From positions 1 to 40,588 of the forward strand of contig CAZYIM010000027.1 of NCBI GenBank assembly GCA_964647565.1: 40,588 nucleotides of DNA, written 5' to 3'. The DNA comes from an uncultured Methanosarcinales archaeon (GTDB lineage: Archaea; Nanobdellota; Nanobdellia; Woesearchaeales; CAZYIM01). Below the pieces are notes generated by a model, which did not search any database, had not been told where the DNA came from, and saw only the letters and a list, made by a program, of their open reading frames with translations. This document shows positions 1 through 26,791 of the stretch, one piece after another. How positions within the stretch are numbered: position 1 is the stretch's first letter; each line of letters starts with the position of its first letter. A program made the position numbers and the translations under genes.

Positions 1-467
1 CGTTAAGAATAATTGCTGAAAATAGCAACCTTGAAAATAGTCAAGATACCGAACTGTATCAGTTTATTGTTGGGAATCCCATTTATATTCCACCAAAATC
101 TGAGATTGAAATTTTTATCCCTTTAAAAGCATATAACGAGTTAGATAAAGATAAGCGGATCGGAGATTGGAGTGTAAAACCACAATTAAATCCAAATCAA
201 TACAACATTAAATATTTTAATAATCCTTTTACAGGAGAAATAGCTAATATAAAACCAGAATTTAGAATTCAATCACAGATAACCGGCAATTTATTAAAAT
301 TTGAAGCAAAGAAAAAAGAAGTAGTAGTTGATTCGAATACGGGAACAATGTCAGAAATTATAAAAGCCATATGGGAATTTATTAAGAACTGGATAGGCTA
401 TATTATTGCGGGAATCATTATAGTTGTGGGGGGAGGTATAATCCTTGCCAAGTTTAAGAAGAAATAA
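1..467 (+). CDS. 3' part of a hypothetical protein. Partial: start lies outside the window. C-terminal hydrophobic anchor (IIAGIIIVVGGGIILAKFKKK).
   Basis: Open frame (phase 3) runs from the window edge to TAA at 465-467. Hydrophobic C-terminus. Confidence 0.4.
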   Translation, partial: LRIIAENSNLENSQDTELYQFIVGNPIYIPPKSEIEIFIPLKAYNELDKDKRIGDWSVKPQLNPNQYNIKYFNNPFTGEIANIKPEFRIQSQITGNLLKFEAKKKEVVVDSNTGTMSEIIKAIWEFIKNWIGYIIAGIIIVVGGGIILAKFKKK

Positions 468-468
468 A

Positions 469-672
469 ATGTCAAAACAAAAGTCTCCAGCTGATTTCAA
501 TATGAAAGATTGGAAAAACTTAGGTATTTATTTAGTTCTGTTAGGATTGATGGCTATGTTTCTAATTGGAGAATGGAAAATTGGAGGTGGATTATTTCTT
601 GTTGGTTTAATTTTCACGGGAATCTTTCAGGGCCCAAAAATATTCAAAATTTTTAAGAAAAAAAACTGGTAA
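469..672 (+). CDS. Small membrane protein, two predicted TM helices.
   Basis: ORF track 445..672. ATG at 469 (MSKQKSP...). Hydrophobic stretches LGIYLVLLGLMAMFLIG / GLFLVGLIFTGIF. Confidence 0.4.
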   Translation: MSKQKSPADFNMKDWKNLGIYLVLLGLMAMFLIGEWKIGGGLFLVGLIFTGIFQGPKIFKIFKKKNW

Positions 673-792
673 ATCCGTTAAGAAATACAATTTATAATGG
701 TAGTATGCCTAATTTCCAAAGTATGAGAAAGATGATTACTGCCAAAATCAATATTTCTAATCTTGGATCTAAACCGAACCAACCTTTTTTAT

Positions 793-1701
793 TCATTTTG
801 TTATACCCCCATTCGACTTACGCCCATTTTTTCGCTTATTAACTAAGTATATTATTATGTATAAAATAACTGCTAAGACTGTTAGTAATAACGCAACATT
901 ATTACTTTTTGAAATACCAACGAAAGAAAGCAAGGCGGAAAAACCTTTTGTAACCAGTGCTAATACACTTAAATAAAAAATTAAAAGTATACTAGATCTA
1001 ATAATAACGATGGGTGATTTTAGAGATGGATTTTCTTTAAAGAAGGTTTCTTCTCCAAAGATTATTTCTCTAAGCTTATGAAATGCTAGTGAAAAAAAAT
1101 TTTCTACAATATTTTGATTTGTATCCTTTATGTTAATCTCTTCACCAAGTTGAACCTTAGTTGGTTTCTGTGTATCATCAGATGATTTTATTATTAATTC
1201 ACATTTATTGATGTATTCATCAATTATTTCAATAAGTTTAGATTTTACTGATGAAATAATGCGAGAAAGATGGGCGGGAGGAACATGAGCTTGAAAGACA
1301 GGTACATTAAAAACTTCTCTTAGTGCTTGTCCATTTACAGGATTTAGTATCCAGTATGATTCTATATGCTCTTCTATAAATGAAATTTCTTGGCCAACAG
1401 GATATTTTTGTGCGTCTTTTTTGATTTTTTGGTCTTCAATAATTATTGGTCTTTTATACTCATCGTAAAATTGACAATATGTTATTCTATATTCAGGAAG
1501 ATTTTTTTCTAATTCACCAACAGTTTTAAATTTATGATAACCATTTAATTCCAAATCTATCCATTCAAAATTTACTGAATCGTTTAATGATTTTGCAATG
1601 GATCTTACTGTTAGCAATGCTGAACTAATTTTAATCTCATCCTTAATAAGGTCGTCTTTAGTTTGAATTAACTGTTGTATGATTCTAGGATAATTCACCA
1701 T
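793..1701 (-). CDS. Hypothetical protein with a soluble N-terminal domain and two C-terminal TM helices.
   Basis: 302-aa ORF. C-terminal ILLIFYLSVLALV... and VALLLTVLAVILYIIIYLV hydrophobic helices. No motif recognised with confidence. Confidence 0.55.
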   Translation of the reverse strand: MVNYPRIIQQLIQTKDDLIKDEIKISSALLTVRSIAKSLNDSVNFEWIDLELNGYHKFKTVGELEKNLPEYRITYCQFYDEYKRPIIIEDQKIKKDAQKYPVGQEISFIEEHIESYWILNPVNGQALREVFNVPVFQAHVPPAHLSRIISSVKSKLIEIIDEYINKCELIIKSSDDTQKPTKVQLGEEINIKDTNQNIVENFFSLAFHKLREIIFGEETFFKENPSLKSPIVIIRSSILLIFYLSVLALVTKGFSALLSFVGISKSNNVALLLTVLAVILYIIIYLVNKRKNGRKSNGGITK

Positions 1702-1911
1702 TATTAAAGAAATAGTATAATCATATTTAAAAAACTTTTCTTGGTTTCCTTAAAAATAGGTTTAATATCAAATCAATTCACTTCAAGTTCTTTTTACCGC
1801 AATCTTTATAAACTCCAAAGCCCAACTCTAAAACAAAACCAATAAGAAACAGCATGGCGTTCTACCCAACGTTTATCGTCGGGCCGTGGCGTTTTTCCCT
1901 TCTCCCACCCA

Positions 1912-3495
1912 TCAACCAACAACATCATGCATCCGATACCGATTGTTCTCCAGCTTGTACTTCCGTAGTTTGCCTATCATTCCGGTTCTTGCCTTAGTTT
2001 TCTCTGGTTCGTTCCAGGGATAGATTATCCCGTGGATCACTTTCCCATTCATCTGTATAATTTTTCTCGGAAGGTTCGTAATCTTAATCCCATACTTGCC
2101 TGGGTTTATCTGCATGTCAGACCCTTTGACAACCTGCAGTTTCCCAAAGCCTATCCTATCGATAAAGTCTTGATTGTTTTCTAAGAAATCAAGTGTTTCC
2201 TGCAATTCACTTTCACTTTCAGTAGGCAGGTTGTATATTATCAAAAGATAGTTCTTTATACCTTGTAAATATGCTCGTTTCAACACATCCTTCATAACTT
2301 CCACTTTAGTGCCTTTCTTAATTAAATCAAGCAGTCTTTGATTAAAACACTCTGCTCCCCAGTATATTGCCTTGCAGCCTGCTTTGGCCATCTTCATTAA
2401 AATCTCATCTGTAAACGTCTCAATTGGCTTTGAATAGCAGGAGAACTTAATATCCATGTTTTCAACAACCAACCTTTCACTCAATTTCTCAAGCAGCGGA
2501 GGCACCATATATTCATCTACAAATGAAAAGCTTTCAATCCCATATTTCCTCTTATAATATTTGAGCTCTTCAATAAACCTATCCAGGGATTTCCTGCGAA
2601 AGGCCATATATGAACGGTGATGTGTGCAAAACGCACATTTCCTCCAATGGCAGCCTCTTGTTGAGAGCACTGCTAAGATCGGCACAGGATTAAGATACTG
2701 TTTAAAATCAAAATCATCAAGATCTGGAAAAGGAAGATTATCAATATCAGGAACACAATTCGTCTCATTAAATACTAACTCCTTTTGTTTCATATATGCT
2801 AAATTGGGCACAGAGTCTATATTTTTACCTTGCTCAATTGCATCCATCAGTCCAAGCAGGGCAAGCTCTCCTTCACCAACTATCAGATAATCAACAAAGT
2901 CAAGAGTCTCTAAAATCTCCTTATGATCATAATGTGTCATTTGTGCCCCGCCCAAAACAATAGTCTTGTTATGGTGTTTTTTAAGATATTTAGCAAGGGC
3001 GAATGTATAATGGAACTGCAATGAAGAGAACATGGAGAATCCAACTATATCACAATCAACTTCCAAGATCCGTTTGATATCATTTTTTAAGAATAATTCA
3101 ACAATCTCTTCTTCATACATATCCTTCTCAATATATTTGATGAATGCATGGCTGACTATCTTGATCATTGACATAGACAGTTCATTTACCCTGATATTGT
3201 ATTCATTGATAAGCTTAGGATTTTCTTTTACAAGGGTCATACTCTTGAAGTATCTTTTAGCATCCTTAACAAATTCAGGATTTTCCAGCTTGGGATCATC
3301 AGGGTAATCCGCAGGAATCTTCTTCTTGATCAGATCTATATCCATTTCAGGAAGCCGATTATAAAAATCAATATTCAGATCTATACACCTGACCTTGTAA
3401 TCAGAACTCTTTTCAACATAGGCCTTTAAGTACGCTATACCTATTGGCATATAGGTGGGCACACCTATAGGTGAAAATACCAGACATGCTTTCAT
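1912..3495 (-). CDS. B12-binding-domain / radical SAM domain protein (class-B-like radical SAM enzyme).
   Basis: 527 aa. N-terminal Rossmann-like B12-type region (KACLVFSP...) followed by Cys triad RGCHWRKCAFCTHH (spacing C-x4-C-x2-C) and a radical-SAM core. Confidence 0.7.
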   Translation of the reverse strand: MKACLVFSPIGVPTYMPIGIAYLKAYVEKSSDYKVRCIDLNIDFYNRLPEMDIDLIKKKIPADYPDDPKLENPEFVKDAKRYFKSMTLVKENPKLINEYNIRVNELSMSMIKIVSHAFIKYIEKDMYEEEIVELFLKNDIKRILEVDCDIVGFSMFSSLQFHYTFALAKYLKKHHNKTIVLGGAQMTHYDHKEILETLDFVDYLIVGEGELALLGLMDAIEQGKNIDSVPNLAYMKQKELVFNETNCVPDIDNLPFPDLDDFDFKQYLNPVPILAVLSTRGCHWRKCAFCTHHRSYMAFRRKSLDRFIEELKYYKRKYGIESFSFVDEYMVPPLLEKLSERLVVENMDIKFSCYSKPIETFTDEILMKMAKAGCKAIYWGAECFNQRLLDLIKKGTKVEVMKDVLKRAYLQGIKNYLLIIYNLPTESESELQETLDFLENNQDFIDRIGFGKLQVVKGSDMQINPGKYGIKITNLPRKIIQMNGKVIHGIIYPWNEPEKTKARTGMIGKLRKYKLENNRYRMHDVVG

Positions 3496-3610
3496 TTCAT
3501 CCCCGATTCAAGAAGATTTATACAAGCTTAAAAAGTTTATTGTTTAACATAAGTTATTAAAAATAGAAAAATTAATAAACTAGTAAGTCATACCTTACTT
3601 TGGTGATATC

Positions 3611-3877
3611 ATGGAATTTGCTATAGCTAAAGTAAGTACAAAAGGTCAGATAGTAATCCCTAGTTCTTTAAGAGGGGACATACATAGCGGAGACGAATTC
3701 TTAATCGTCAAGGATAATGGAAGAATGATCCTGAAAAACATGAAAAAAGTAGCTAAGGATTTAAAAGAAGATCTTGCCTTTGCAGAGAGGATTGAAAAAG
3801 CCTGGAAAGAACACGATAAAGGTAAGTTTATTACCAAATCCAAGAATGATTTCTTAAAGGAATTAAGAACATGTTAA
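3611..3877 (+). CDS. AbrB/MazE/SpoVT-family antitoxin (swapped-hairpin DNA-binding domain).
   Basis: N-terminal KVSTKGQIVIPSSLR motif typical of AbrB-type looped-hinge domain. Overlaps the downstream toxin gene by 7 nt. Confidence 0.65.
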   Translation: MEFAIAKVSTKGQIVIPSSLRGDIHSGDEFLIVKDNGRMILKNMKKVAKDLKEDLAFAERIEKAWKEHDKGKFITKSKNDFLKELRTC

Positions 3878-4119
3878 CCATTGATTATCACCCTAATTTT
3901 CTAAAGATAATTAGTAAGATTAAAGACTTGACAACCAAAGAGAAAATCAAGAAACAAGTCGAAAAAATAATAGAAGATCCAGAAATTGGCAAACCAATGA
4001 AATATGATCGCAAGGGAACAAGGGAGCTGTATGTTGCACCTTATAGGTTAGCCTATGTATTTATTGCCTCAGAAAATAAAATAATCTTTCTAGACATCTA
4101 TCATAAAGATAATCAGTAG
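3871..4119 (+). CDS. RelE/ParE-family type II toxin.
   Basis: 82 aa. GKPMKYDRKGTRELYVAPYRLAYVF...IIFLDIYHK matches the RelE/ParE core. Operonic with the upstream antitoxin. Confidence 0.7.
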   Translation: MLTIDYHPNFLKIISKIKDLTTKEKIKKQVEKIIEDPEIGKPMKYDRKGTRELYVAPYRLAYVFIASENKIIFLDIYHKDNQ

Positions 4120-4190
4120 TGCCTGTTTTTAGCCTATATTTATAAATAAATTCAACTTCCCTATTCTATTATAGTAACAGTTGATGAAAT

Positions 4191-5090
4191 ATGAATCCAA
4201 TAGCATTTTTCGGGCGGATGCGCTGGGCTTACAATAACTGGACTGAAACCCTTGAAGAATTGATCCAACCACTACCAAAAGACCTTGCAAAGTCTTTTAG
4301 GCAGTTGCACACCAGAAGAAAGGGCCTGTCAGTTTCAGGATTAGGAACCTTGCTTTTCGGCGAGATGTTCAACCTAAATACAGATCCTATTGTATCTAAT
4401 GTAACCGCTGCAATAAACTTCGGATCTGGCTATCTGGATGATTATATAGATTTACACGATCCAGATCCTTCTTTTACAGAGACAATGCTGGATGATCTTT
4501 TGCACTTCTCAGAGACTGGAACCAATGATAATGAATTCCTGACAAGAATCGCACCAATAGTCCAATATATACGGGAACAATTTGACACAAAAATCAACGA
4601 TGGCATCCTGGACGCCTTCAAGTATTACAAGGACGCATCAGTAGCAGAGATGAAAGCCAACACTCCAGATGATCGCGAATCTGCAAGGATCAAGATTGCA
4701 GACGGCTACTCAATGATGCTTTCCCACACATTGAATGCCTTCTCAGAGAATCAACTAACTCCAAACCAATGGCAGGCAATAAAGCTTTTTACCAGGAGCT
4801 CTGTTTTGCTTGATGACCTTTGCGACATGTATCCTGATGCTGATTCCAAAGCAGGTTCATATGTCATGGACAGGATAAAACAGTCAGGAAGCACTATTAA
4901 AGTCATTTATGACCAAGCCAGGAAGATACAAACAAATTTCAAGGAAGGAAAAAAATTAATACAGAATTATGATGATAAGAGGCTTTACCAGGATATGGCG
5001 AATTCAGCCAACATAGCAGTATCTTACAGGTTCTTTACCAACTATTGCAAGCGTATACTCGGCAAGAGTTGGGAAAAGATCGGTTATTAG
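4191..5090 (+). CDS. Uncharacterised protein with two Asp-rich motifs (YLDDYIDLHD; LLDDLCDMYPDADS). Possibly isoprenoid-synthase-fold-like. Paralog of the next gene.
   Basis: 299 aa. Motif 1 DD at about residue 83 and motif 2 DD at about residue 208, spacing about 125 aa. Clear paralogy with 5130..5993. Confidence 0.6.
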   Translation: MNPIAFFGRMRWAYNNWTETLEELIQPLPKDLAKSFRQLHTRRKGLSVSGLGTLLFGEMFNLNTDPIVSNVTAAINFGSGYLDDYIDLHDPDPSFTETMLDDLLHFSETGTNDNEFLTRIAPIVQYIREQFDTKINDGILDAFKYYKDASVAEMKANTPDDRESARIKIADGYSMMLSHTLNAFSENQLTPNQWQAIKLFTRSSVLLDDLCDMYPDADSKAGSYVMDRIKQSGSTIKVIYDQARKIQTNFKEGKKLIQNYDDKRLYQDMANSANIAVSYRFFTNYCKRILGKSWEKIGY

Positions 5091-6786: not shown

Positions 6787-7452
6787 TTGGTGGTGGTTAT
6801 GGACGTTTGTTTTAATAAGTTTAAAAAAGGAGTTGATATCAAGGCAATACTTGATATTAGCCTTATCGAGGACATAAAGCCAGGCATGCTTCCAGGCTAC
6901 TTCTTTCCAAAGCTGATCAAGATGGGCCATCTTAAGATAGATCCGTATTATCCTGATCAGCAGGGTAATATCTGCTACTACCTGCATTTCAACAATGTTT
7001 CCAGGCGACTCAAGAGAAGAGGCTGCAGGATCGATCTCAACTCAGAGGAGTCTGTGGAGGCTGCCTATAAAAAAGCCAAGACAGCAGAGTTCTTAACCAT
7101 AAAACCTGGAGAGAGCATCATTGCCCAGACCTATGAGAAGCTGGGCCTGTCCAACTGGCTGGCAGCCAAGATGGAGAACACAACCACGCTTGGAAGGATA
7201 TTCCTCAATCATGCATCACATGGATATATGCATCCGGGCCATGGATATAAAGAACCAGCCCAGTTGATGATAGAACTGACCAATCTTGGAAAGCGGACTG
7301 CTGTACTGCAGCCTGCTGTTGAAGAAGGCGGACAGATATACGGTTCCCAGGCTTTCAGGTTCTATATAGAAAAGCTTCCATATCCTGCAGTACCTTACAC
7401 CCACGGAAGCAAGAATGCAAGATTAAAGATGAATGAAAGCGACAAAAGCTAG
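6787..7452 (+). CDS. Hypothetical protein.
   Basis: 221-aa ORF with coding-like composition. No recognised motif. Probable true start at MDVCFNKF (6799). Confidence 0.5.
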   Translation: MVVVMDVCFNKFKKGVDIKAILDISLIEDIKPGMLPGYFFPKLIKMGHLKIDPYYPDQQGNICYYLHFNNVSRRLKRRGCRIDLNSEESVEAAYKKAKTAEFLTIKPGESIIAQTYEKLGLSNWLAAKMENTTTLGRIFLNHASHGYMHPGHGYKEPAQLMIELTNLGKRTAVLQPAVEEGGQIYGSQAFRFYIEKLPYPAVPYTHGSKNARLKMNESDKS

Positions 7453-8105
7453 ATCTTGTACGCCAGTGTAGAAGGACTTATTCTTCCAACACAAGGACCG
7501 TCTTTTACTTCAAAGCCAGCCCTGACCAAATTGATCCTTATCGGTGTTGCGCAAGAATAGGTTGATAGCACACCTCCAGTCTTGACGACCTTTGAGATCT
7601 GCTTCATGAACTCCTCACTCCACATATGCGGAGTCCTTGAATATGAGAAAGGATCTAAAAACACAACATCAAACTCGCCGTCAAGCATATCCACTGTCTT
7701 CTTTGCATCACCAAGCAGCAATTTGATAGTCACATTGTTCCACTTGGCAGAGAGATCACCCTTTGCCATGCCTTTTATCAATGGATAGCTCCAGAATTTT
7801 GGATTCACTTCCTTTATCTTCTCAATGATATGAGGATCCAGCTCAAGGGCCATGACATCTATCTCACACTCTTTATTAGTTTTCAGAGCCAGATCAAGGG
7901 CTGCAGCAGTGTTATAGCCAATGCCAAAACATATATCCAGAATCCTGATCTTGCCTTTCTTTGCAAGCTTTTTGATTTCAGTCGGCTCTGCATATTTCTT
8001 TATGGCCTCTTCCTCTGCTCCGGTCAATGAATGATAGCACTCTTTTACCTTTTCGTTGAAATAAGTGTACGAGCCGTCCTTGGTCTTGGTCTTCTTGAGC
8101 TTCAT
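7449..8105 (-). CDS. MnmC-like (DUF752) SAM-dependent methyltransferase domain protein.
   Basis: 218 aa. ILDICFGIGYN and DVVFLDPFSYSRTPHMWSEEF...GGVLSTYSCATPIRINLVRAGFEV align with the methyltransferase domain of MnmC (WFLDGFAPAKNPDMWTQ...[22 protein letters not shown]). Confidence 0.75.
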   Translation of the reverse strand: MKLKKTKTKDGSYTYFNEKVKECYHSLTGAEEEAIKKYAEPTEIKKLAKKGKIRILDICFGIGYNTAAALDLALKTNKECEIDVMALELDPHIIEKIKEVNPKFWSYPLIKGMAKGDLSAKWNNVTIKLLLGDAKKTVDMLDGEFDVVFLDPFSYSRTPHMWSEEFMKQISKVVKTGGVLSTYSCATPIRINLVRAGFEVKDGPCVGRISPSTLAYKI

Positions 8106-19721: not shown

Positions 19722-19768
19722 TTAACCTGCTGAATGTCCTCCCCAGCCTGCTGCGCTCCTATAGCATC
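19722..19768. repeat. 47-bp perfect direct repeat, copy 1 (orphan copy of the 3' end of gene 20392..21540).
   Basis: TTAACCTGCTGAATGTCCTCCCCAGCCTGCTGCGCTCCTATAGCATC is identical to 20392-20438. Confidence 0.9.
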
Positions 19769-20391: not shown

Positions 20392-20438
20392 TTAACCTGC
20401 TGAATGTCCTCCCCAGCCTGCTGCGCTCCTATAGCATC
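20392..20438. repeat. 47-bp direct repeat, copy 2 (true 3' end of gene 20392..21540).
   Basis: Identical to 19722-19768. Contains the stop codon (TTA on the plus strand) and the last 15 codons. Confidence 0.9.
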
Positions 20439-22873: not shown

Positions 22874-23830
22874 ATGCAACTAGATGTGCTGGATAAAAAG
22901 ATCTTGAATCAGCTCAACCAAAAGCCAAGGGCGAGCTTCTCAGAGATTGCCAAGAAAGCAAGGGCATCCAAGGAGATTGTGAACTACAGGGTTAGCAGGC
23001 TAAAAAAGGAGGGCATAATAAAAGAATTTGTGACCATCTTTGGCCTGGGCTACTGGGCATATAAGGTGCTTATAGATTTTAGCCAGATAGATGTTGAAAA
23101 AGAAAAGAAAATCCTGGAATACCTGACTAATCATCCCAATGCCAACTGGGTGACATCGTGCTCTGGAGGCTGGGACCTGGTCTTTGCAGTCATGGTAAAG
23201 GACCCTGAGCACTTTGATAAGGTGTTAAGGCAGATAATGGGCAAGCTGGGCAAGCATGTAAGGGAGTATAAGGTGGCAACCAGCATCGGCTCCCAGACAT
23301 TCGGCCATACATACATCCTGGGCCGGGTCAAAGAGCCTGAGAAGATACAGAGAAAGAAAAAAGAGTTTGATTTTGATGAAAAAGACAAACAGATTGCCAG
23401 GATACTGCATAAGAATGCAAGAGCTCACTTGATGGAGATCTCAACCCAGACAGGCATCCCAGTTGACACAGTCAACTACAGGATAAAGAAGATGGAGCAG
23501 AACTCGATCATCAAGAGATACCGGATGATATTAAACCCTTCTGTATTGGGCTATCATCGGTACGAGATATTCATCAGATGCATCAACCTGACTGATCCGA
23601 TAATATCCAAATTCAGGGAATACGCAAAACAGAATAAACACATAGAATACTTCAGCAGGTGCGTGGGCAGCTGGGATATTGAATTGACTGTACATTTCAA
23701 GACCAGCGATGAGCTGAGAAAATTTATCCTGGAAGTCAAACAAAATTTCGGCGAAAACATACAGAAATTCGAGACAATAACACTCTTTGAAACACTTAAC
23801 TATGTCTACTTCCCAGAGGAGTTTGTTTAA
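22874..23830 (+). CDS. Tandem (single-chain double) Lrp/AsnC-family transcriptional regulator.
   Basis: 318 aa containing two HTH+RAM modules: DKKILNQLNQKPRASFSEIAKKARASKEIVNYRVSRLKKEGII and DKQIARILHKNARAHLMEISTQTGIPVDTVNYRIKKMEQNSII. Confidence 0.7.
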   Translation: MQLDVLDKKILNQLNQKPRASFSEIAKKARASKEIVNYRVSRLKKEGIIKEFVTIFGLGYWAYKVLIDFSQIDVEKEKKILEYLTNHPNANWVTSCSGGWDLVFAVMVKDPEHFDKVLRQIMGKLGKHVREYKVATSIGSQTFGHTYILGRVKEPEKIQRKKKEFDFDEKDKQIARILHKNARAHLMEISTQTGIPVDTVNYRIKKMEQNSIIKRYRMILNPSVLGYHRYEIFIRCINLTDPIISKFREYAKQNKHIEYFSRCVGSWDIELTVHFKTSDELRKFILEVKQNFGENIQKFETITLFETLNYVYFPEEFV

Positions 23831-24006
23831 AGGGTTTGTCCTCACCTCTGCAGAAGAGAGTTCCGTCCTTTGAACATACTCAGAAATGAAACAGTTCTGG
23901 TATGCTTAGCAACGCAGTTGCTGGCACACCGGAAACACAGCTTCCTTGTGTCCTAGAAATCTTAATTTCTATGATATAGTCTGCTTTACAGGATTAATTA
24001 AAAGAA

Positions 24007-24369
24007 TTATGCTGCTGAAGCAATTAAGGGACTCTTAAAATTAGCATTGGCAAATGCTGGTAATTTTTCCTTGATCACTTCATTATTATGCTTAAATATC
24101 AGAGTAACAATAAAATAATTTCGATAATTTATTACATCCAACTCAACCTCAGTTATACCTTCCAACATATCTTTTGAAATTTTATCATTAACAGTATGTA
24201 AGAATTCAAATGCATCAATTAACTCCAAATTAACTAATTGTTTATTTTTGTCTATATCAATAACTAGATCTTCAGATACTTCAATACTTTCTTTAACATT
24301 TTTTGCAGACCTATAAATAGTTAAAACATCCCCATCTGGATCATATGAAGCACTAAATTTCTCAGTCAT
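24007..24369 (-). CDS. DUF2283-like small protein (antitoxin-like partner of DUF4258 toxins).
   Basis: 120 aa. YDPDGDVLTIY...IEVSEDLVIDIDKNKQLVNLELIDA matches the DUF2283 pattern (YDxExDxLYI...GIEIL). Confidence 0.4.
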   Translation of the reverse strand: MTEKFSASYDPDGDVLTIYRSAKNVKESIEVSEDLVIDIDKNKQLVNLELIDAFEFLHTVNDKISKDMLEGITEVELDVINYRNYFIVTLIFKHNNEVIKEKLPAFANANFKSPLIASAA

Positions 24370-24391
24370 AATAATCTCTAAATACTCCGGG

Positions 24392-24655
24392 TTATTTAAA
24401 TCTTTTCCTATATTTAGTAATTGTCGTTCTTCCTAGTGGAAAAACAGTAATAACTTTAATATTTGAATTAAAAGTTAAAATAAAACATCTGCCTTTAGAT
24501 CCTGAGAAAATGTGATAACACCTATATCTTGTTTCTTTTTTACCTTGAAAATCTACTTCTTGTTTCGCTACAAAAACCAAATCTGTAGAATCGTGAATTT
24601 CAGTTTTCAAATCTTGGATAGTACTTTTATTCCTTTTTTCTAACCAACTTATCAA
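24392..24655 (-). CDS. Small hypothetical protein (possible DUF4258-like toxin partner).
   Basis: 87-aa ORF immediately upstream of the DUF2283-like gene. C-terminal ...IKVITVFP resembles DUF4258. Confidence 0.35.
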   Translation of the reverse strand: MISWLEKRNKSTIQDLKTEIHDSTDLVFVAKQEVDFQGKKETRYRCYHIFSGSKGRCFILTFNSNIKVITVFPLGRTTITKYRKRFK

Positions 24656-24850
24656 TTTAATCTTAGTAAATTTAATATCGGATAATTGATATTTTTTTAA
24701 TTTATCCTTAATAAATTTTGACCAATCATCTATGATGAAACATAGAGCAGATACTCAAGTATATAAACATTCCCCAATAAACCTTGTTCTTTTTACTAGG
24801 GTAGATAGAACAAAACTCCCCCTTTATATAAAATACAAAAGAAGTCTTAG

Positions 24851-24905
24851 GTGCTGATCAGATCTTTTTTCTATAATGAAATGCGTATTCATCAAAGTCA
24901 TAGCT
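24851..24905. repeat. 55-bp direct repeat (51 bp perfect plus GTG with 1 mismatch), copy A (orphan copy of the 3' end of GNAT gene 26744..27181).
   Basis: TGATCAGATCTTTTTTCTATAATGAAATGCGTATTCATCAAAGTCATAGCT is identical to 26741-26791. On the minus strand it encodes SYDFDEYAFHYRKKI-stop. Confidence 0.9.
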
Positions 24906-26736
24906 TACATTCCTGGACATGTTTGCACATAAACAAAACAATGTCTCGTTTAATGGGTGCTAAGTTCAATAAGATTTGGAGTCCTAAAAAGATAAAGGGG
25001 TCTGGAAATTTTAGATAAATTCTTAAATAGATAGTTCTCTTTTGTTCATAACATGAATCCAATATTATCAGAAGTAAAATACGTTGTTGAAAATTCAGAA
25101 CACGTCAAAATTAATGTTGATGCCATAAAAACAGTTGTAGATGGTTTTTCCCCTGAAGATAAAGTTCCTTGGACTGACATTCTTCCATTTAAACCACAGA
25201 ATCTAACTAAAAAAGAAAGAATTGCTTTTAATTTTGTATTTAATGCAATTAATTTTTCATATTGGGGAAATCCAAAATGGACAATCAAATACCAAGATAA
25301 AGAATTAGATGGTTCTTGGGCAATGATTGGCTCAATTCATCGTGCGATTGAAGAAGGTTATGATATTTTGAATCCAAAATATCTGATAAATATTAGTGAG
25401 GAAAATTTTGATCATATTTTTCGAGGAAACGTAAAAGTTCCACTTTTTAATGAGAGATTAGAAATCCTTCGAAAACTTGGAAAAATAATATGTTCTGATT
25501 TTAATGATGATTTTGAAAATGTTTTAATAGAATCTAATTATGAATCTGAGAAACTGCTCAATATAATTACTTCTAAATTTGATTTTTTTAATGACTATTC
25601 CCTGTACAAAAATAAAAAAGTGCATTTTCATAAAAGAGCCCAATTACTAATTGGAGATATTTATGAATTATTGCTGGAATTCAAGCAAGAAAGCATAAAA
25701 AACATAAATTTTTTGACTGCTTTTGCTGATTACAAAATACCTCAGATTCTAAGAAAACTTAATGTCTTGGAATATTCTAAAGAGTTAGAAAATTTAATTG
25801 GTAATAAAATAGAGATGGAATCTGGAAATCCGATGGAAGTAGAAATAAGAGCAAATATGATATGGGCAATTGAATTAATTAAAGAAGAAATAAACAAAAA
25901 ATATCCTGAAATTAATTCAATGAATATAGATCACTATTTGTGGATTCTTTCACAAGATAAAAAGAAAGATGATAAACCATATCACCTAACAAGAACTATT
26001 AATTATTAAAAAATTGCAATTTTACTCAGAATTTCTGGCGCAGAGTTTATAAATTAAGCTGAATTCCCCTTGTTTATGGGAATTGATTTTTCAGAATTGC
26101 CTTGGGAAGATCTTGAAGTTGAAGATCATGATTGGCCTGGAGGAAAGTCCATTAAATGGTTGTCTGGCAGAGTAACTATTAATGAATATGGTTATGATAT
26201 AACGGATCGTGTTGAATTATATATACTTCCTGATGGAATTGAATACTTAGCACAACATCCTCAAGCTCTTAATAGTTGGTTAAATGAGGATTTTTTTTGT
26301 CAGAAGAAAAATATCGAGGTCCAACAGCTCTAAGAGGCAGGTATGTTCAACAACTAACTCTAGATGGAGAGGTATTTGCACAAAAAACTTATGGAAATAA
26401 TGATGTCGAAAGCGCATTTAAACAAGCAGGTTTCTATCGAAAATTAGATGAACAACTAGACCCCAGTAATGTAAGAATTCCCAAATTATTCTTTGCTCTG
26501 GAACGGAGATTATTAATGGAACCCTTGTTTGGTTTTCCCAATATTGAGGATCTAAGAATAAAAAGTGGTTCTGATCAAGATATCCTGGCCTTTTTTGACA
26601 AACAAGAAAAACCAGACAAACCTTTAGTTGAAGAAGATGGAATCTACGTACTAAAAGGCAATCCTATTGAAAAATCAGAGTTTATATTGACTGATCCGAG
26701 AGTTAATAACGCTAAAAATTCTTCCAGCATACTAAA
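24906..26736. mobile_element. Very AT-rich (about 27% GC) inserted island bounded by the 55-bp direct repeats. Carries Qng1-like gene plus a frameshifted gene. No integrase inside.
   Basis: Bounded by the direct repeats. Strong compositional contrast with flanks (about 45-50% GC at 33.3 kb). Confidence 0.45.
25053..26009 (+). CDS. Qng1/DUF2419-family queuosine salvage protein (queuosine 5'-phosphate N-glycosylase/hydrolase-like).
   Basis: 318 aa. Blocks AFNFVFNAINFSYW, HKRAQLLIGDIY, AFADYKIPQIL, MEVEIRANMIWAIELIK and IDHYLW align to conserved blocks of Qng1 (…NFSFW…YKRAQILVADTW…MFADYRLPQVL…QEVEIRGCSLWCVELIR…LDYYLW). Confidence 0.75.
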   Translation: MNPILSEVKYVVENSEHVKINVDAIKTVVDGFSPEDKVPWTDILPFKPQNLTKKERIAFNFVFNAINFSYWGNPKWTIKYQDKELDGSWAMIGSIHRAIEEGYDILNPKYLINISEENFDHIFRGNVKVPLFNERLEILRKLGKIICSDFNDDFENVLIESNYESEKLLNIITSKFDFFNDYSLYKNKKVHFHKRAQLLIGDIYELLLEFKQESIKNINFLTAFADYKIPQILRKLNVLEYSKELENLIGNKIEMESGNPMEVEIRANMIWAIELIKEEINKKYPEINSMNIDHYLWILSQDKKKDDKPYHLTRTINY

Positions 26737-26743
26737 GTGTTGA
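26070..26743 (+). pseudogene. Hypothetical gene split into two ORFs (26070..26333 and 26297..26743) at a T8 homopolymer (26291-26298). Frameshifted, slippage-prone, or a sequencing error.
   Basis: Two overlapping ORFs in different frames switch exactly at TTTTTTTT. The second ORF has no ATG (TTG only). Confidence 0.35.
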
Positions 26744-26791
26744 TCAGATCTTTTTTCTATAATGAAATGCGTATTCATCAAAGTCATAGCT
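26737..26791. repeat. 55-bp direct repeat, copy B (true 3' end of the GNAT gene).
   Basis: Matches 24851-24905. Confidence 0.9.

Follow-up and report, generated by a model that had tools for sequence, protein, structure and literature searches.

The Qng1/QNG1 proteins (DUF2419, PF10343) are queuosine-5′-phosphate N-glycosylases/hydrolases, represented by the enzymes of Sphaerobacter thermophilus, S. pombe and human (PDB 7u07, 7u91, 7ugk), and they have so far been understood only as queuine-releasing enzymes of eukaryotes and a few bacteria. The stretch of DNA considered here—40,588 nucleotides of contig CAZYIM010000027.1, from an uncultured archaeon, and referred to throughout as the window—encodes a further protein of this kind:

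25053..26009, + strand: Qng1-family (PF10343) gene, an uninterrupted ATG-to-stop open reading frame (ORF) of 318 amino acids (aa)

The ORF is a genuine, intact member of the Qng1/DUF2419 family. To judge by the residues that it keeps and those that it replaces, it very probably retains the 5′-mononucleotide N-glycosidic chemistry of the family and its recognition of a guanine-like ring, and it has probably lost recognition of the queuine side chain. We hold with moderate confidence that the protein would be a nucleoside-5′-monophosphate N-glycosidase for a guanine or 7-deazaguanine base other than queuine, employed in nucleotide scavenging or sanitation; the class of nucleotide, the non-queuine specificity and the physiological role we infer.

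The active site of the S. thermophilus enzyme, StQng1, is known in detail (PMC9881137). D231 acts as nucleophile or as stabiliser of the oxocarbenium, K199 contacts the ribose hydroxyls, F75 and Y232 stack against the ribose, and R80, K233, Q306 and Y232 bind the 5′-phosphate. The 7-deazaguanine ring lies in a sandwich formed by I203 and W302, its guanine edge is read by D298, and the site is closed by the carboxylate of the C-terminal residue, Y323, together with E267 and H316. The cyclopentenediol of queuine lies in a pocket formed by P46, W48, H53, Y93, W94 and W299; Y93 also makes a cation–pi contact to the 7-methylamine, and a relay of D69, N72, D207 and water leads to the secondary amine of the substrate. 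The mutants D69A, N72A, D207A and D231A are defective, and Qng1 enzymes are inactive on polynucleotides (PMC9881137).

The window protein matches this family from end to end. The Pfam Q_salvage profile (PF10343) aligns over its positions 6–285 of 285 with E=1.6e-79 and 267.9 bits (cut-off 25); no model was matched in an NCBIfam profile search. StQng1 (7u07/7uk3) matches residues 4–318 with E=2e-57 and human QNG1 (7ugk) the same residues with E=2e-48, and identity to the Qng1/QNG1 proteins of known structure (PDB 7u07, 7u91, 7ugk) is 32%. An AlphaFold model built from 30 homologues (pLDDT 92.2, pTM 0.91) superimposes in Foldseek on 7u07, 7u91 and 7uk3 with a TM score of 0.92 and a root-mean-square deviation of ~2.1 Å, the two-lobe fold of Qng1, which resembles that of helix-hairpin-helix (HhH) proteins, being present. 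An earlier note on this DNA, made from the letters alone, had placed a Qng1/DUF2419 homologue at 25053–26009; its coordinates were exact, and profile and fold both agree with the assignment.

HhH DNA glycosylases (AGOG, Ogg1, EndoIII/NTHL1, MutY) share the two-lobe HhH architecture, a catalytic Asp and, within the HhH motif, a Lys, and the same note had allowed that the protein might turn out to be a generic HhH-GPD glycosylase. It did not: identity to these enzymes is ~10%, and NTHL1, AGOG, MutY and EndoIII reach TM scores of only 0.3–0.4, against 0.92 for Qng1. The window protein would have a closed mononucleotide site with a C-terminal carboxylate lid, whereas DNA glycosylases have a DNA-binding groove. 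Such a mis-assigned DNA glycosylase, or else a passenger gene decaying on a mobile cassette, is by now very improbable and largely refuted. The gene does sit in a variable, low-GC segment with toxin–antitoxin-like genes, and the gene next to it on the cassette described below is frameshifted. The Qng1-like ORF itself, however, is intact and has all of its catalytic residues; its ratio of nonsynonymous to synonymous substitution (dN/dS) against four relatives is 0.10–0.15, and so it is under purifying selection; the identical arrangement recurs in contigs of at least nine metagenome samples; and the DNA glycosylases are structurally remote from a family that is inactive on polynucleotides (PMC9881137).

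To map residues, 122 sequences of the clade to which the window protein belongs were aligned with 120 canonical sequences of the StQng1 clade and two PDB sequences. The catalytic pair is kept in the window protein as D226 (D231 in StQng1) and K194 (K199), and across the clade the Asp is present in 120/122 sequences and the Lys in every one. Y70 (F75) and Y227 (Y232) occupy the ribose-binding positions; the 5′-phosphate pocket consists of K75 (R80), Y227, K228 and Q301, every change in it being conservative; and the residues that hold the 7-deazaguanine core are there as D293 (D298), L198 (I203) and W297 (W302). The protein ends ...TINY, placing Y318 at the position of Y323, and the partners of that residue, E262 and H311, are present. 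In StQng1 numbering, K199, D207, D231, Y232, K233, E267, W302, Q306, H316 and Y323 are each at least 94% conserved in the window clade—K199, Y232, E267, W302 and H316 are invariant in all 122 sequences—and their window counterparts (K194, D202, D226, Y227, K228, E262, W297, Q301, H311, Y318) are all in place. Core residues are thus 94–100% conserved in the window clade and in the canonical clade alike. Three core changes that discriminate the two clades, R to K, F to Y and I to L, are conservative, and position 298 is Asn, with Asp at 299, in 46% of the window clade.

The pocket for the queuine side chain is another matter. At four positions with 97–100% conservation in the 120 canonical sequences (H53, D69, Y93 and W299), and at P46, the two clades compare as follows:

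H53: canonical clade H 100%; window clade P 94%; window protein P45
D69: canonical clade D 100%; window clade N 71%, D 13%; window protein N64
Y93: canonical clade Y 99%; window clade A/S 88%; window protein S88
W299: canonical clade W/Y 99%; window clade D/S/H 92%; window protein H294
P46: canonical clade P 78% (A 15%); window clade deleted; window protein deleted

Only W40 and W89 of the cyclopentenediol/aminomethyl pocket are retained in the window protein, and the relay is interrupted by the change of D69 to N64, though N67 and D202 are kept. The alignment of the pocket is made unambiguous by the anchor residues around it (DG-x-W, D-x-LL-W, NF-x-x-WG). Among the positions that discriminate the clades (n=22), 4 of the 8 in pocket and relay are included, versus 18 of the 306 elsewhere (p=0.001). 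Residues near the pocket have also become bulkier in the window clade, with L68F, A62I/L and A97I/L/M (L68F, A62I and A97I in the window protein), which suggests that the cavity has been reshaped and not merely emptied. The earlier note had the protein matching all conserved Qng1 blocks, and this stands for the catalytic, ribose, phosphate and C-terminal residues; for the queuine pocket it does not, 4/8 residues being replaced and P46 deleted. In sum, the window protein resembles Qng1/QNG1 in fold, catalytic Asp and Lys, ribose-stacking Tyr, 5′-phosphate pocket, guanine-edge Asp, stacking Trp, and obligatory C-terminal Tyr with its Glu and His, and departs from it by H53P, D69N, Y93S, W299H, the loss of P46, L68F, A62I and A97I. 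The hosts differ as well: DPANN archaea and bacteria of the Candidate Phyla Radiation (CPR) for the window clade, eukaryotes and Chloroflexota-type bacteria for Qng1/QNG1.

The canonical signature of positions 69, 93, 298 and 299, D-Y-D-W, occurs in none of the best 80 DPANN/CPR loci. Instead the pocket comes in two sub-types, the dominant N-[A/S]-N-D, present in archaea and bacteria alike, and x-[A/S]-D-[S/H/G]; the window protein and its closest relatives have N-S-D-H. What seems new here is the specificity: the sequences describe a DPANN/CPR clade that lacks the queuine-specific residues and would keep the chemistry. Our literature search found no description of a DPANN/CPR Qng1-like clade, of PF10343 in these organisms, or of an altered pocket.

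Could the protein nevertheless be an ordinary Qng1, one that releases queuine from queuosine 5′-monophosphate (Q-5′-MP) for a bacterial- or queuine-type TGT encoded elsewhere in the genome, its pocket altered by neutral drift? We consider this unlikely. The full-length family match is strong and every catalytic, ribose and phosphate residue is present, but residues as constant in canonical sequences as D69, Y93, W299 and H53 are replaced systematically in the window clade, and even the human enzyme keeps D69, Y93 and position 299 (as Tyr), though not H53. StQng1, moreover, needs its D69, as the alanine mutant shows (PMC9881137).

Gene neighbourhoods bear on the same question. We clustered 1,355 neighbour proteins from 81 loci, and none proved to be a universal partner. 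A tgt gene lies within 10 kb of the Qng1-like gene at just one of the 81 loci (L075), and no conserved linkage to tgt was found. At that locus (923..4725), genes for a DnaJ protein, the Qng1-like protein, an NYN-domain nuclease and a bacterial-type TGT are co-directional. Aligned with an E. coli Tgt sequence, the TGT has Val for Cys158 and keeps Val233, a mixture of preQ1- and queuine-type features; queuine-type TGTs typically carry two changes, of which Val for Cys158 is one (PMC5699537). This cluster speaks for an ordinary Qng1, as does the presence of bacterial TGT, QueA and QueH in some DPANN genomes, 12 of them reported by Castelle et al. (PMC8204110). The L075 protein, however, belongs to the other pocket type, N298–D299, and its TGT keeps Val233; the route through TGT, QueA and QueH, for its part, uses preQ1 and not queuine. 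The window (40.6 kb) has no tgt, arcS or queC–E gene, its two radical-SAM proteins give no meaningful QueE- or RaSEA-like scores, and arcTGT, ArcS and QueC–E are absent from every neighbourhood examined.

Three kinds of companion recur: NUDIX or deoxyribosyltransferase-like proteins, an Lrp/AsnC regulator and a fused methyltransferase. Genes for NUDIX hydrolases and for small proteins like nucleoside 2-deoxyribosyltransferase (NDT) stand directly upstream of some Qng1-like genes on the same strand, and at one locus (L017) the two are fused together. They accompany 7 of 26 loci of the D298 type versus 1 of 50 of the N298 type (p=0.002, with no phylogenetic correction). The D298-type loci with such neighbours include the closest relative of the window gene (L002), and the window protein is also of the D298 type. 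A tandem Lrp/AsnC regulator of the same type as that encoded in the window at 22874..23830 directly adjoins Qng1-like genes in six other DPANN loci, a DHH phosphoesterase gene adjoins a homologue of 83% identity, and an SNase nuclease is encoded ~4.4 kb away from another of 70% identity. In four representative clusters, of the N-D (N298–D299) pocket type, the Qng1-like protein has an S-adenosylmethionine (SAM) methyltransferase fused to its N-terminus. These fusions (P0251, P0252, P0290, P0334) are ~540–557 aa long, with a class I SAM methyltransferase followed by a C-terminal Q_salvage domain; separate methyltransferase genes stand directly beside Qng1-like genes at L022 and L033. In related Woesearchaeota (L083/L084, contig ERZ1426824) Lrp/AsnC genes lie beside purA–purB and pyrB–pyrI, or purC–hisG–hisIE, which hints that the tandem regulator may act on nucleotide metabolism; around the regulator in these genomes no synteny was found, and no Qng1 gene is there.

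How might the window protein work? In the reaction that we favour, this divergent Qng1/DUF2419 enzyme would bind a ribonucleoside 5′-monophosphate, cleave its N-glycosidic bond by means of Asp226 and Lys194 together with the C-terminal carboxylate of Tyr318, and release the free base and ribose 5-phosphate. The base would be guanine-like, of a modified guanine or 7-deazaguanine type, because the protein keeps D293 and its stacking Trp/Leu pair; it is unlikely to be queuine, since the pocket and the acid that hold the aminomethyl-cyclopentenediol side chain have been replaced. Such an enzyme would serve a nucleotide-dependent DPANN symbiont in scavenging or sanitation, the base or the ribose phosphate, or both, being recovered from a modified or 7-deazaguanine-type nucleotide of degraded RNA, whether scavenged or damaged. 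A scavenging role fits the NUDIX and NDT-like company, and also the way in which DPANN and CPR organisms live by scavenging nucleotides (PMC8204110).

Reactions of this type, from nucleoside monophosphate to base and (deoxy)ribose 5-phosphate, are carried out by several nucleotide N-glycosidases of salvage and sanitation: DNPH1/Rcl, which has the deoxyribosyltransferase fold, PpnN and AMP nucleosidase. Their folds are unrelated to that of the window protein and the analogy is functional only. Relatives of the window gene do adjoin genes for deoxyribosyltransferase-fold and NUDIX proteins. Queuosine nucleoside hydrolase (QueK) and queuine lyase (QueL), enzymes of bacterial queuine salvage, share with Qng1 the context of 7-deazaguanine salvage; they belong to unrelated protein families, act on the nucleoside or the free base, and were not found in the window.

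Several points weigh against the reading that we favour. The canonical pocket holds the cyclopentenediol by shape alone (PMC9881137), and the remodelled pocket might still accept Q-5′-MP. Position 299 varies inside the clade (D/S/H/G/N), which could mean several substrates or simply an unimportant position. The link to NUDIX and NDT-like genes, uncorrected for phylogeny, holds for no more than roughly one D298-type locus in four, and neither kind of gene is present in the window itself.

Which base, then? One possibility is that the enzyme recycles material of the archaeosine pathway, freeing preQ0, or archaeosine base (G+) that decays to preQ0, from their nucleoside 5′-phosphates, produced by tRNA turnover or taken from the host, and so feeding the archaeal TGT of an organism that cannot make preQ0. 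Archaea do salvage preQ0, and free G+ deamidates to it (PMC5699537). The transporter encoded beside an Acidobacteriota qng1 gene carries preQ0 and preQ1, not Q, which was unexpected to its discoverers (PMC11130926), and this is a hint that some members of the Qng1 family may handle other deazaguanines. Of the residues for a 7-deazaguanine core, those at the guanine edge and those for stacking are still there; D69, the acidic partner of Q's amine, has become a neutral Asn; and the polar Ser and His of the window protein would suit a nitrile or an amidine. Against this, CPR bacteria, which lack archaeosine, have the clade and its pocket signatures to the same extent; arcTGT, ArcS and QueC–E are missing from the window and its relatives' neighbourhoods, as described above; and a smaller residue at position 93 would enlarge the pocket, not shrink it. 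We think this explanation, which takes up the archaeosine/preQ0 idea of the earlier note, doubtful, a little more so than an ordinary Qng1. The earlier note had proposed a different substrate for the protein, and the remodelled pocket makes that plausible; the archaeal host as such, which the note had given as the reason, is not one.

A broader idea can be put forward tentatively, with less assurance than the non-queuine N-glycosidase itself: that the DPANN/CPR clade is a distinct class of enzymes in which recognition of queuine has been exchanged for that of preQ0, preQ1, G+ or some other modified guanine, with at least two specificity sub-types, and that it has passed repeatedly between ultra-small archaea and bacteria. 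If so, nucleotide-auxotrophic symbionts would have a dedicated route by which to strip and reuse the modified nucleotides of their hosts. Were the true substrate identified, the little-known nucleotide economy of these organisms would gain a step, and a salvage or sanitation route not seen before might emerge for nucleotides with a modified guanine or a 7-deazaguanine. It matters for annotation, too. "Queuosine salvage" names have spread to every PF10343 member, and because the DPANN/CPR clade lacks the queuine-specific residues and would keep the chemistry, hundreds of them are probably over-specific.

For a DPANN archaeon to carry a Qng1-family gene is in fact ordinary. Relatives occur in at least 443 species genomes, mostly of DPANN archaea and CPR bacteria, a lower bound set by a scan that was pattern-limited and took one genome for each species; the best 80 of the 443 comprise ~35 DPANN archaea and ~45 CPR bacteria, a few of the labels being dubious. 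When 50%-identity representatives were searched exhaustively with HMMER, 2,800 family members came up at E≤1e-3, of which 495 reached E≤1e-30. A protein search returned 849 matches, the best named ones from Woesearchaeota, Nanoarchaeota and CPR bacteria (Torok-, Nomura-, Pace- and Patescibacteria), and copies in Woesearchaeota and Nanoarchaeota already bear the NCBI label "queuosine salvage family protein". The earlier note's view that a Qng1 gene would be unexpected in archaea thus does not survive these counts and names, nor the report of bacterial TGT, QueA and QueH in DPANN genomes (PMC8204110).

Relatives with 59–84% aa identity are all on low-GC contigs, the named members being Woesearchaeota. 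The closest, L002, comes from a Woesearchaeote of 26% GC, and its 82.7% nucleotide identity to the window is confined to positions 25023–26015. Three further close homologues (70–83% aa identity) lie on contigs of 30–35% GC, each in a different context, and between the window and these four loci there is no flanking synteny. In a neighbour-joining tree, sequences of DPANN and CPR origin are intermixed, the domain switching at least ~10 times; the window protein falls, as does L002, with those of Nanoarchaeota, and the nearest sequences are those of Woesearchaeota and Nanoarchaeota. A bacterial or eukaryotic donor, as the earlier note had suggested, is not supported and was rejected on this ground, and the low-GC Woesearchaeota among the relatives agree; the donor appears to have been another DPANN archaeon. 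A viral origin was rejected as well, 2.9 million viral contigs yielding one distant match (29% identity). Elsewhere in the tree, very short branches run across domain labels, joining L018, L029, L032 and L038 (CPR/bacterial) and L027, L031 and L036 (DPANN); these are either very recent transfers between CPR and DPANN organisms or mis-binned contigs.

The window gene itself arrived recently. Its GC content is 0.269 and its GC at third codon positions (GC3) 0.179, against means of 0.387 and 0.376 (GC3 standard deviation (sd) 0.113) for the 42 ORFs of the window. In 77 other genomes the GC of the homologue minus that of its locus averages −3.8 points (sd 4.6), against −11.9 here. The features that concern the insertion are these:

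22874..23830, + strand: tandem Lrp/AsnC regulator, host-native, GC 0.43, taxonomic marker
24007..24655, − strand: DUF2283 gene and 87-aa ORF pair, left of the cassette, GC3 0.16–0.17
24846..24905: left direct repeat, an orphan copy of a GNAT gene 3′ end, 147 nt upstream of the Qng1-like start codon
26070..26743, + strand: second cassette gene (224 aa in population variant L085), split in the window into 26070..26333 and 26297..26743
26732..26791: right direct repeat, within the GNAT gene's own 3′ end
26744..27181, − strand: GNAT acetyltransferase, its 3′ end being the repeated sequence; probable integration target

The host is confirmed, from its proteins, as a Woesearchaeote, that is, a DPANN archaeon. 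Homologues of the Lrp/AsnC regulator are 60–71% identical and all the named ones are from Woesearchaeota or Nanoarchaeota, and other window proteins cluster with DPANN loci, from which a Woesearchaeote contig follows; tRNA and rRNA genes are absent from the 40.6 kb. The two repeats, each the last 15 codons of the GNAT gene with its stop and a further 12 nt, are identical at 57 of 60 nt (54 of 55 in the core aligned by BLAST), and between them lies a cassette of 1.83 kb. Its two genes are the only ones on the + strand in a variable low-GC segment of ~6 kb (~23950–29900); the flanking genes from 24007 to 32290 are all on the − strand. Without the cassette, the GNAT, 87-aa ORF and DUF2283 genes would once more form a co-directional array. 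The second cassette gene, which had no match in Pfam or PDB, is split by a frameshift into overlapping ORFs of 87 and 148 aa in the window and in other variants and is intact (224 aa) in L085 (locus 445..1119), a polymorphism within the population. The composition, the repeats of 55–60 nt, the gene-limited identity to L002 and the differing contexts of the homologues together show that the 1.83-kb cassette with its bounding repeats was inserted recently and came from another low-GC, Woesearchaeote-like donor. On host, low-GC island and recent horizontal acquisition, then, the earlier note was right.

How the cassette entered can be narrowed down. An integron attC cassette was rejected, the repeat folding no better than shuffled sequence (z +0.4 to +0.6), and the window ORFs of 100 aa or more showed no integrase domain. 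The best fit would be single-crossover (Campbell-type) integration of a small circle that carried a copy of the GNAT 3′ end. All 12 recovered population contigs, from at least nine metagenome samples, are colinear with the window, and none of them is an empty-site variant without the cassette. The locus is a clean example of a small, integrase-free, repeat-bounded cassette moving between Woesearchaeota.

Genes of defence or toxin–antitoxin-like type are found at three places in the window: AbiTii (793..1701, − strand), DUF2283 with its 87-aa partner (24007..24655, − strand), and HEPN with an MntA-like nucleotidyltransferase (27257..28296, − strand). The GC3 of AbiTii is as low as that of the DUF2283/87-aa pair, and these are the lowest values in the window (0.16–0.18), suggesting that such genes were acquired on several separate occasions. 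Comparison of contig L091 with the window gave, as a self-hit, a perfect direct repeat of 47 nt (19722..19768 and 20392..20438, ~670 nt apart), which brackets the region between a radical-SAM gene and a 382-aa ORF.

Two other genes deserve mention. The one at 29918..32290 (− strand) encodes a 790-aa homologue of the Major Vault Protein (MVP), with Pfam MVP_shoulder (E=3.9e-28), Vault_3 and Vault_4 domains; it matches rat and human MVP in PDB with E ~6e-26 (residues 186–704 on MVP 236–770), and at 0.475 its GC is the highest in the window. MVP is considered a eukaryotic protein. The other, at 7449..8105 (− strand), encodes a protein with an MnmC2-like tRNA (mnm5s2U34) methyltransferase domain (Pfam Methyltransf_30, E=1.7e-29) that scores 118 bits with NCBIfam NF033855, just below the cut-off of 136 bits: a bacterial-type enzyme of wobble-uridine modification in a DPANN archaeon.

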